A stretch of 64,000 nt of DNA from Pseudomonadota bacterium (GTDB lineage: Bacteria > Pseudomonadota > Alphaproteobacteria > Caedimonadales > UBA1908): positions 25,471-89,470 of the forward strand of contig JAIUNT010000001.1 of assembly GCA_020161545.1 (NCBI GenBank). Direction: 5' to 3'. Positions 22,609 through 23,737 of this stretch are shown here, one piece after another. The notes under the pieces are model-generated. The model ran no database searches. It had not been told where the DNA came from and saw only the letters and a list, made by a program, of their open reading frames with translations. Each line of letters starts with the position of its first letter. Position 1 is the stretch's first letter. The position numbers and the translations under genes are program-made.

Positions 22609-22857
22609 TTGTTTTTTTCTGTAAAATCTTTCTCAAGTGACATCTTGGAGCCAGCTCCTCAAAGCGCCAGCACCCCCATCACGAAAGCGCCTTTCGATCA
22701 TGATAACCACGTCCAGGCCTCAGCCCAGGACATGCTTGAAGCTCTCTATGCTAAGACACTGCCAAGGCCTGTGATGACACATCTGGTTTCTTTTTTGGAC
22801 GACGCCAGCCTCTTTTTTCCTTTGGAAGACGCAGCTTGCTTTGCCGCGAATGGGTGA
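22609..22857 (+). CDS. short ORF with F-box-like motif; possible 5' fragment of the downstream LRR gene (frameshifted or pseudogenised)
   Basis: LPRPVMTHLVSFLDDASL (22759-22812) fits the first two helices of the F-box consensus LPxE[IL]Lxx[IL]xSxLDxxxL. The ORF has only a TTG at 22609, with the first ATG at 22732. It ends 8 nt after the ATG of the next ORF, which is in the +1 frame. T6 runs lie at 22791-22796 and 22813-22818. Confidence 0.3.
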   Translation: MFFSVKSFSSDILEPAPQSASTPITKAPFDHDNHVQASAQDMLEALYAKTLPRPVMTHLVSFLDDASLFFPLEDAACFAANG

Positions 22858-23737
22858 TGAGGAGATGGGCACCCAGCCCCAGAACAGGCAGGAAATTCTC
22901 AGGCGCATTGCCGGGTCAACGCACATCTCTCACGCCGTCGCTGTGCGCTATCACCCCGACTCAATACCCGTTTATTTCTCGGCTCAAGGAGGTTGCCCCT
23001 ATGCCACCTTCAGACAAGAGAACATGACCACCTTGGCAAAGGCCCTTTCATCCCCTTCTCCCTACTGCAACTTAAGATTACCAGACGACGAGGACAGGCG
23101 TCCTGCCCTTCTGCCCCTGGCTGTTGCCATCGCCCAAAACAAGACATGCACCACACTCAAACTGCACGATGCGTGGTTTACAGCGCGATCGGTCCCTTTG
23201 CTGACCACGGCGTTAAAAGAAAACAGCCACCTGCGCACCCTTAGTCTCGACGATAACACCATGGGCGATACGGGCCTCGTTTTACTTCTGGGCGCGCTCC
23301 TTGATCATCCTTTGGAGAAGTTGTCCCTTCACGCCACAGGGCTCACCAAAGCAAGCGCACCTTATCTGAAAAGATTTTTAGAAAAGAATACCATCCTCAC
23401 ATCCCTCGACGCTTCTTTCAACGAGCTGGGAGATGAGGGAATGACTCACCTTGGCCTGGCGTTGACGAAAAATGCCTCACTGCAGCGCTTGGGGCTTTGT
23501 GTGAATGGCATTACGAATCGAGGAGCCACAAACTTTGCCAAGCTTGGCCTCGCCCACAATAACACGCTGAGTTTTTTGAAGCTCCACTCCAACCAAATAA
23601 CCCATGACGGCGCCGTCGCCCTTTTTGAGAATAGCTGCAAGACCCTCGCCATCAGCCTATTTTGGAATAGCGGGGCGAGCGCCAAAATCCGGCAGCATAT
23701 CGGGGACTCGACGGCAAGTCGCATCAATTTTGGTTAG
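22850..23737 (+). CDS. ribonuclease-inhibitor (RNI)-type leucine-rich repeat protein
   Basis: Consecutive 28-29-residue repeats are present: NTMGDTGLVLLLGALLDHPLEKLSLHAT / GLTKASAPYLKRFLEKNTILTSLDASFN / ELGDEGMTHLGLALTKNASLQRLGLCVN / GITNRGATNFAKLGLAHNNTLSFLKLHSN. There is no signal peptide. Confidence 0.8.
   Translation: MGDEEMGTQPQNRQEILRRIAGSTHISHAVAVRYHPDSIPVYFSAQGGCPYATFRQENMTTLAKALSSPSPYCNLRLPDDEDRRPALLPLAVAIAQNKTCTTLKLHDAWFTARSVPLLTTALKENSHLRTLSLDDNTMGDTGLVLLLGALLDHPLEKLSLHATGLTKASAPYLKRFLEKNTILTSLDASFNELGDEGMTHLGLALTKNASLQRLGLCVNGITNRGATNFAKLGLAHNNTLSFLKLHSNQITHDGAVALFENSCKTLAISLFWNSGASAKIRQHIGDSTASRINFG

Follow-up and report, generated by a model that had tools for sequence, protein, structure and literature searches.

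The 64,000-nucleotide (nt) stretch of alphaproteobacterial DNA analyzed here (the window) carries two adjacent open reading frames (ORFs) on its forward strand that raise a simple question: are they two genes, one gene broken by frameshifts, or one gene that is still read across its frames? The upstream ORF (22609-22857) starts with TTG, has its first ATG only at 22732 and encodes 82 amino acids (aa), ...AKTLPRPVMTHLVSFLDDASLFFPLEDAACFAANG; the downstream ORF lies in the +1 frame, is open from 22841 to 23737, has an ATG at 22850 and encodes leucine-rich repeats (LRRs). A preliminary reading made from the letters alone (the sequence-only reading) had raised the possibility that the two are fragments of one gene coding for an F-box-like motif followed by LRRs, and all the sequence facts that it gave are present: both ORFs, the position of the first ATG, the T6 runs at 22791-22796 and 22813-22818 and the peptide SLLCREW in the third frame. 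We find that the pieces do belong together, as two relatives read in a single frame demonstrate, and that window 22580-23737 (+) is one ancestral gene of ~385 codons, now in pieces across frames, from which standard decoding cannot yield the full-length protein.

One ancestral gene in pieces across frames

The collinear reading of the gene takes three steps, from ATG 22580 in the LRR frame to the frame of the small ORF and back again to the LRR frame, and involves the following features.

22518-22546, + strand: possible promoter, as read from the sequence (TTGACA at 22518-22523, a 17-nt spacer and TAGGGT at 22541-22546).
22580-22624, + strand: true 5' end of the gene by three-frame translation, with ATG 22580 in the LRR frame, encoding MTSVYLAILICFF and stopping at TAA 22622-22624.
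22612-22618, + strand: first frame break, at a T7 run lacking one T; as T8, the run would give ...ICFFSVKSFSSD... in a single frame.
22618-22818, + strand: middle segment with the linker and the F-box-like motif, one base off the frame of both flanks.
22759-22818, + strand: the F-box-like motif, LPRPVMTHLVSFLDDASLFF, which corresponds to the first half of an F-box.
22791-22796, + strand: first T6 run, in frame in the window genome; its counterpart in the sister species is T9.
22813-22818, + strand: second frame break, at a T6 run carrying an extra T; as T5, the run would give ...SLFFLWKTQLALPRMGDEE... leading into the LRR frame.
22819-23737, + strand: C-terminal part in the LRR frame, a helical linker and about six 28-residue LRRs of the ribonuclease inhibitor (RI) type.

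After correction of the two T runs the conceptual product has 385 aa and is laid out as a hydrophobic N-terminus, a linker, a motif resembling the first half of an F-box and approximately six 28-residue RI-type LRRs. Its 5' segment (22580-22624), in which residues 4-15 of MTSVYLAILICFF have a mean Kyte-Doolittle hydropathy of 2.7, aligns without gaps to the N-termini of two intact relatives, designated P0005 (from its TTG) and P0006, while the meaningful portion of the small ORF is confined to 22618-22818. The LRR ORF matches Pfam LRR_6 with 43.9 bits (cut-off 23.4; E = 1.5e-11), its repeats follow a 28-residue register, and public annotation presents it as 290 aa from ATG 22865 (P0001) or 295 aa from ATG 22850 (P0163); locus tag LCH26_00230, a 290-aa hypothetical protein of a metagenome-assembled 'Proteobacteria bacterium', is 100% identical to it. 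We infer that the 82-aa ORF is not a gene of its own and that the annotated 290-aa LRR-only ORF is a surviving 3' remnant. The main value of the analysis is corrective, in that the public 'hypothetical protein' would really be the 3' two-thirds of a broken 385-codon gene. The candidate promoter sits within a leader strongly conserved with the sister genome, and a TTGACA box is also found upstream of both intact paralogues; a strict consensus scan for promoters and terminators gave nothing and did not call the candidate at 22518-22546.

The evidence for a single gene comes from the comparison with the intact relatives. A metagenome-assembled genome (MAG) labelled 'Candidatus Puniceispirillum sp.' (contig PNJU01000001.1, here L001) is syntenic with the window over >20 kb at 86-91% DNA identity and encodes an orthologue of the LRR ORF (C0514_01090, 290 aa, 71% identical). 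Directly downstream of this orthologue lies an extra gene, P0005 (L001 10895-12283), which is not in the window. P0005 was called as an intact ORF of 463 aa; a TTGACA box precedes a TTG at about 11108, which is probably its true start, and a single frame runs from a hydrophobic segment (…RSFYVAILTAFLTFQAYTSDD) through …GQEILFTLYVQKLPRPVLSHIFSYLDEASLFNLCAAQLPFQFMDEE… to the LRRs. P0006, likewise intact, is a 385-aa protein encoded on a 1.4-kb metagenomic contig from ENA; it has the same layout and starts MLRSLYIVVLTAFASLQAVASQD. Both proteins read LPRPVLS(H/R)IFSYLDE(A/G)SLF(N/H)LCAAQL...MxEE... in one frame, followed by LRRs. The repaired window product aligns to them end to end (39% identity to P0005 over its full length and 35% to P0006), and under the three-step reading the window aligns to both without gaps at the junctions. 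Hence, the repair put forward by the sequence-only reading, deletion of one T from 22813-22818, which fuses the two ORFs, is the correct one. The same reading suspected more than one indel; a second break does exist, but it is the T7 run at 22612-22618, which was overlooked, and it does not lie in the SLLCREW frame.

The shortfall in the T7 run makes the frame of ATG 22580 end at TAA 22622, and the extra T at 22813-22818 puts motif and LRRs in different frames. The T7 run and the first break recur in L001. The second break of L001 falls in a T9 run, where the window has GGTTTCTTTTTT, and FLDDGTLFYLWKTQL in L001 is already in the LRR frame. Two corrections are needed in each genome, the second of them at non-homologous sites. 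Across 22580-23737 the only indels relative to L001 are 2 nt at 22785-22786 (first T tract) and 1 nt at 22813 (second T tract). The intact paralogues have T runs of at most five at all corresponding sites, and the presence of three runs of at least six T within 207 nt represents about 25 times the window density (Poisson P = 2.4e-4). An exact-sequence look-up of the LRR protein returned two further contigs, L012 from Logan SRR28640817, with two substitutions (20050, 20317) in 5,947 nt relative to the window, and L013 from ENA ERZ27233589, identical to the window over 3,473 nt; both carry exactly the T7, T6 and T6 tracts of the window. The tract lengths are thus alike in three assemblies of the species, which are nearly clonal, and differ between species. 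The breaks are real in the three assemblies.

The family to which the gene belongs combines a signal-like N-terminus, a disordered linker, a helical region with a half-F-box motif at its start and RI-type LRRs. In a search of 1.84 billion representative proteins, whose listing was swamped by giant LRR proteins, only P0005, P0006 and P0001 covered the family profile beyond the LRRs, and scans of species-representative genomes and of metagenomes for further relatives returned only the known sister genome and distant LRR proteins. The family appears very small and restricted to one uncultured alphaproteobacterial clade, and it is set among other lineage-specific, apparently secreted paralogue clusters. 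In L001 the intact 1.4-kb P0005 gene (10891-12326) lies between the LRR gene and a gene for a GNAT acetyltransferase; the window has ~140 nt in its place (~23755-23897), with no remnant of the P0005 gene and a difference of 1.3 kb from L001. The window genome has lost the adjacent intact paralogue, which fits dispensability and equally leaves the broken copy as the sole family member seen in the species.

N-terminus, F-box-like motif and repeats

The N-terminal segments of the family have hydropathies of 1.9-2.7, and the N-terminus of P0006, MLRSLYIVVLTAFASLQAVA, is followed by SQD, resembling an A-x-A cleavage site. In the AlphaFold2 (AF2) model of P0006 a helix occupies residues 2-22. Judged by these features, the N-terminus is Sec-signal-like and the protein is probably exported. 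When intact, it would be exported and would bind a partner via its LRR surface.

The sequence-only reading had named the lack of any F-box profile match, in all frames and in the repaired version, as an outcome that would refute it. For the window copy this was the outcome: no Pfam F-box model matched it at E <= 10, whether the small ORF, the third frame, the repaired fusion or a 66-aa excerpt was used as the query, and the L001 orthologue has no Pfam F-box match either. The resemblance survives in part in the intact paralogues, whose matches to F-box-like (PF12937) are borderline: P0005 scored 21.5 bits (E = 1.9e-4) and P0006 17.1 bits (E = 0.0046), both below the cut-off of 24.3, and a 66-aa excerpt of P0005 (25.5 bits) was the sole query to reach it. 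All these matches are limited to profile positions 2-25 of 47. The third helix of the F-box is not matched, and by eye its Trp position is occupied by Phe in P0005 and P0006 and by Leu in the window and L001 orthologues. Hence the window copy stays below the curated thresholds of PF00646 and PF12937, and not all three helices of an F-box were recovered.

Profile comparisons gave a similar picture. A family profile built from four N-termini placed the FBXL2 F-box second among all PDB sequences, with a non-significant E = 0.51; aligned by hhalign with four PDB F-boxes (FBXL2, FBXW8, FBXL5 and Skp2), the family profile reached a probability of 83% (E = 8.5e-6) over 25 columns, against 11% for the window sequence alone aligned with the F-box alignment. 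The AF2 model of P0006 (predicted local distance difference test score, pLDDT, of 80) shows helices at 54-63, 68-76, 80-94, 98-101, 106-117 and 120-129 before an RI-like horseshoe; the N-terminal region modelled alone was poor (pLDDT 55), and the Foldseek matches of that model are meaningless. A repair through the third-frame SLLCREW was also considered and rejected: the chimera of frame 0 and frame 2 matched only F-box_4, at E = 0.27, and the paralogue alignment shows frame 1 to be ancestral, with SLFNLCAAQLPFQFMDEE of the paralogues aligning with the frame-1 reading SLFFLWKTQLALPRMGDEE.

Collectively, these comparisons make a relationship between the family motif and the first half of the F-box credible. 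They do not demonstrate a complete F-box, and the window copy is the most degenerate family member. If the N-terminal motif did bind a eukaryotic Skp1, one would predict an interaction between the clade and a eukaryotic host, and the protein would be an unusual Sec-exported F-box mimic.

With LRR_6 above threshold, a period of 28 residues and a horseshoe fold, the repeats are of the RI type, and the register of 28, LRR_6 and the best PDB matches (RI and NLRP) set them apart from the cysteine-containing (CC) type, whose repeats have about 24-26 residues. A Foldseek search with the P0006 model returned the LRRs of RI, NLRP and NOD2; RipG4 ranked 20th, and the first 50 matches included no FBXL protein. 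The model superposes on ribonuclease inhibitor with a root mean square deviation of about 2 Å over about 225 columns.

Probable recent inactivation or possible continued use

We next consider whether the broken gene is dead, and this depends largely on how its segments have evolved since divergence from the sister genome. Between the window and L001 the LRR ORF (290 codons) has a ratio of nonsynonymous to synonymous substitution rates (dN/dS) of 0.29 at dS 0.64, and the middle segment has a dN/dS of 0.15; neighbouring lineage-specific genes range from 0.18 to 0.29. Differences at the first, second and third codon positions number 53/51/96 in the LRRs (P = 6e-5), 5/5/15 in the middle segment (P = 0.0056) and 1/3/8 in the stretch from the T7 break to the first ATG (22618-22731). 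The bias in this last stretch shows that its own frame was translated over most of the time since the species diverged. No stops or further indels occur within the own frame of the middle or the LRR segment in either species. Identity with L001 is 93-95% over 22560-22679, compared with 65-88% in the rest of the gene and 75% just upstream, and no RNA structure or Rfam family accounts for the high conservation of the leader (22540-22680): folding of 22555-22700 gave z = +1.29, less structured than shuffled controls, and the Rfam search gave no match at E <= 1. The dS of the LRR ORF (22865-23734), 0.64, is two to four times that of neighbouring genes (0.15-0.36), with a similar dN/dS; the cause may be a different history, for instance recombination or conversion involving a paralogue, or a rate that differs locally.

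With two breaks relative to P0005 and P0006, the frame is disrupted as in a pseudogene, but the relaxed selection of a pseudogene (dN/dS near 1, accumulating lesions) is not seen. On this substitution pattern, a gene dead since the common ancestor of the two species is ruled out; if it is a pseudogene, it is a young one. If the shared T7 is ancestral, its combination with the constraint would therefore imply either parallel recent hits at the same hypermutable T8 in both lineages, i.e., two losses from T8 to T7, or a gene still expressed despite its breaks.

Given this, we lean, with moderate confidence, toward a recently inactivated gene, broken twice at homopolymers, or a switch now locked OFF. 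Replication slippage at the T runs, which would be the most mutable sites of the gene, probably produced both indels, one leaving the T7 one T short, so that the frame of ATG 22580 ends prematurely, and the other adding one T to the T6 and cutting the motif from the LRRs. Either the inactivation would be recent or the gene would be a locked switch, as none of the three segments has stopped evolving as coding sequence or gained other lesions; the coding-type constraint in all segments (dN/dS 0.15-0.29) implies that the inactivation is therefore recent or incomplete. The homopolymer breaks would then be real but of an ordinary kind. Several observations weigh against this explanation. The T7 break is common to the sister species, and a gene dead since their ancestor should lack a dN/dS of 0.15-0.29; no other lesions have accumulated over a divergence of dS about 0.2-0.6; in each species the two shifts sum to zero and return the LRRs to the frame of the ATG, which is only mildly suggestive, with a chance of ~1 in 4; and ATG 22865 at the head of the LRR ORF is kept in both species, so the remnant could be made.

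The main rival, that the gene is still used and the full-length protein made at a low or switchable level, either through changes in tract length (a contingency locus) or through slippage during expression, is in our judgment unlikely, although possible; the T7 break common to both species, taken together with purifying selection, speaks for it. The slippage could be that of RNA polymerase on T7, T6 or T9, or that of the ribosome, by -1 at U UUU UUU (22612-22618) and +1 at UUU-UUC (22814-22819). All three segments are under purifying selection, each in its own frame, and this extends to 22618-22731, a stretch that follows the T7 break and precedes any ATG; the first break is the same in both species. 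Moreover, read in the ATG frame, the T7 has the X XXY YYZ phase, and slipping by -1 there gives exactly the paralogue-like ICFFSVKSF; at the second site, a move from UUU to UUC would be a cognate +1 re-pairing. The second break of the sister genome lies in a T9, bacterial transcriptional slippage has been reported on runs of 9 A or T (PMC5009743), a tssM gene has been rescued in this way (PMC4256274), and T runs are enriched in comparison with the intact paralogues. However, each molecule would need two independent corrections, and the yield would be the product of two small probabilities. For slippage to be efficient, or for phase variation, runs of T6 and T7 are short or marginal; the two species have different second shift sites, neither a stimulatory structure nor an Rfam element was found, and the tract lengths do not vary among the three assemblies, although these are nearly clonal.

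Gene fission, by which the functional product would be the LRR-only protein of 290 aa from ATG 22865, without signal peptide or motif, and the upstream 285 nt a decaying leader, appears to us quite improbable. At 22865 both species keep an ATG (MGTQ/MDAL), a position taken by Leu or Val in the intact paralogues; the LRR ORF is unbroken, free of indels relative to L001 and evolves at a dN/dS of 0.29; and gene callers annotate the LRR-only protein. The upstream segments, however, show no decay: the constraint on them is of the coding type, and their conservation (93-95% over 22560-22679) exceeds that of the LRRs. There is also no convincing ribosome-binding site before 22865, as the GAGGAG that abuts the ATG encodes the conserved (D/E)EE of the family, and an exported family member deprived of its export signal would change compartment.

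We regard as very improbable the more specific proposal of a recoded secreted F-box-like LRR protein, which would be produced by a -1 shift at U UUU UUU and a +1 shift at a downstream T tract and selected in two species for very low or switchable expression. The T7 site is conserved, but the second site lies at different tracts in the two species, and the sequence around the sites showed no stimulatory structure or known recoding element.

A sequencing or assembly error, with T8 and T5 in the real genome and an intact gene, was among the explanations listed by the sequence-only reading, and both breaks do lie in homopolymers of a MAG; we consider it extremely improbable. Two assemblies from other accessions share the tracts, and the two substitutions of L012, which lie elsewhere, point to a separate consensus; the breaks are therefore not sequencing errors. 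The window contains 85 A/T runs of at least six and 28 of at least seven, most of the latter inside long ORFs whose frames stay open, and the neighbouring genes examined have complete domain matches, which rules out a general homopolymer-error artefact. A different genome, L001, also has two breaks. Chance resemblance, with a non-coding small ORF unrelated to the LRR gene, is so improbable as to be negligible, since the small ORF, despite the lack of a Pfam match and a start codon that is not conserved (TTG in the window, GTG two codons later in L001), is collinear with intact homologues having motif and LRRs in one frame and its substitutions are biased to the third position.

Genomic surroundings and known systems

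Other lineage-specific genes lie near the gene. Divergent from it, three genes without a Pfam match (window 19615-22439, - strand; L001 6753-9579) encode proteins of 277-314 aa with signal-peptide-like starts, which share 87-93% aa identity with their counterparts in the sister genome at a dN/dS of 0.18-0.29; two of them are 26% identical over about 297 aa, and the third has only a 70-residue match to one of these (29%, E about 3e-4). On the other side, the GNAT acetyltransferase (23888-24484, - strand) has 198 aa against the 149 aa called in L001 (12313-12762), and either the start site or the N-terminus differs. Five tandem paralogues at 9693-15333 (+ strand), of 316-375 aa and 23-51% mutual identity, have no Pfam match and possess signal-peptide-like N-termini ending ...PAFAS or similar; this cluster looks like a lineage-specific expansion of secreted proteins. 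An ORF of 1,097 aa at 6227-9520 (- strand) likewise begins in a signal-peptide-like way (MRRFKKILYSSLFGSLLLTASSYGA...) and matched nothing in Pfam at E <= 1e-5. An iron-sulfur cluster operon occupies 129-5936 (+ strand) and encodes an IscS-like class V aminotransferase, an IscA-like ORF, HscB and HscA, the GIDLGTT motif of HscA lying ~100 nt downstream of the ATG taken as the start by the ORF caller; a probably secreted subtilase directly follows the iron-sulfur operon genes. Topoisomerase I (49795-52212, + strand) has 805 aa, compared with about 880-900 aa in most alphaproteobacterial relatives, and is about 60% identical to that of named Rhodospirillales-like Alphaproteobacteria and 70-94% to that of a few uncultured relatives. 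The lineage is divergent and undersampled, and the 'Puniceispirillum' label of the sister MAG is doubtful.

The sequence-only reading likened the architecture to that of eukaryotic FBXL proteins and Ralstonia GALA effectors; the order of motif and LRRs bears this out, whereas the RI-type 28-residue LRRs and the Sec-signal-like N-terminus do not. GALA proteins are substrates of type III secretion and are not known to carry a Sec signal. Similarly to the family described here, the GALA/RipG effectors are bacterial and have an N-terminal F-box-type motif followed by LRRs, and the RipG4 LRR domain (9j7j) is among both the sequence matches (E = 5.5e-11) and the fold matches (rank 20) of the family. 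They differ in that their LRRs belong to the CC-LRR subfamily (PMC2244805), unlike the 28-residue RI-type repeats here, and in that the present family has a hydrophobic signal-like start and only the first half of the F-box is detectable. Such an N-terminus would set the family apart from known F-box effectors. Eukaryotic FBXL proteins (Skp2, FBXL2, FBXL5) also have an F-box followed by LRRs, share the core LP..(V/L)L..IFS(F/Y)LD and, with FBXL2 (residues 11-33), provide the best PDB F-box match to the N-terminal profile of the family. That match, however, has E = 0.51, the third helix with its Trp finds no counterpart here, the LRRs are of the RI/NLR type rather than cysteine-containing, and the genome is bacterial. 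The best matches to the repeat region are the RI/NLR-type LRR domains (RI at E about 1e-23, NLRP and NOD2), which have the same period of 28; these proteins are eukaryotic, without a signal-like N-terminus or an F-box-like motif.

As for the breaks themselves, the closest parallels are the frameshifted genes of Buchnera and Blochmannia and the Citrobacter tssM gene, in which single-base indels in A/T runs interrupt otherwise conserved genes. Rescue of such genes by transcriptional slippage is documented (PMC5009743; PMC4256274; PMC3017870): slippage on the long poly(A) runs of endosymbionts corrected 12-50% of transcripts (PMC5009743), and a comparable rescue was described for Citrobacter tssM (PMC4256274). 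With a shared frameshift and purifying selection combined, the present gene offers a small case in which slippage rescue or phase variation at short T tracts can be tested. Long runs and a single break characterize the documented rescues, whereas here the runs have 6-7 T (9 in the sister species) and two breaks would have to be corrected together.

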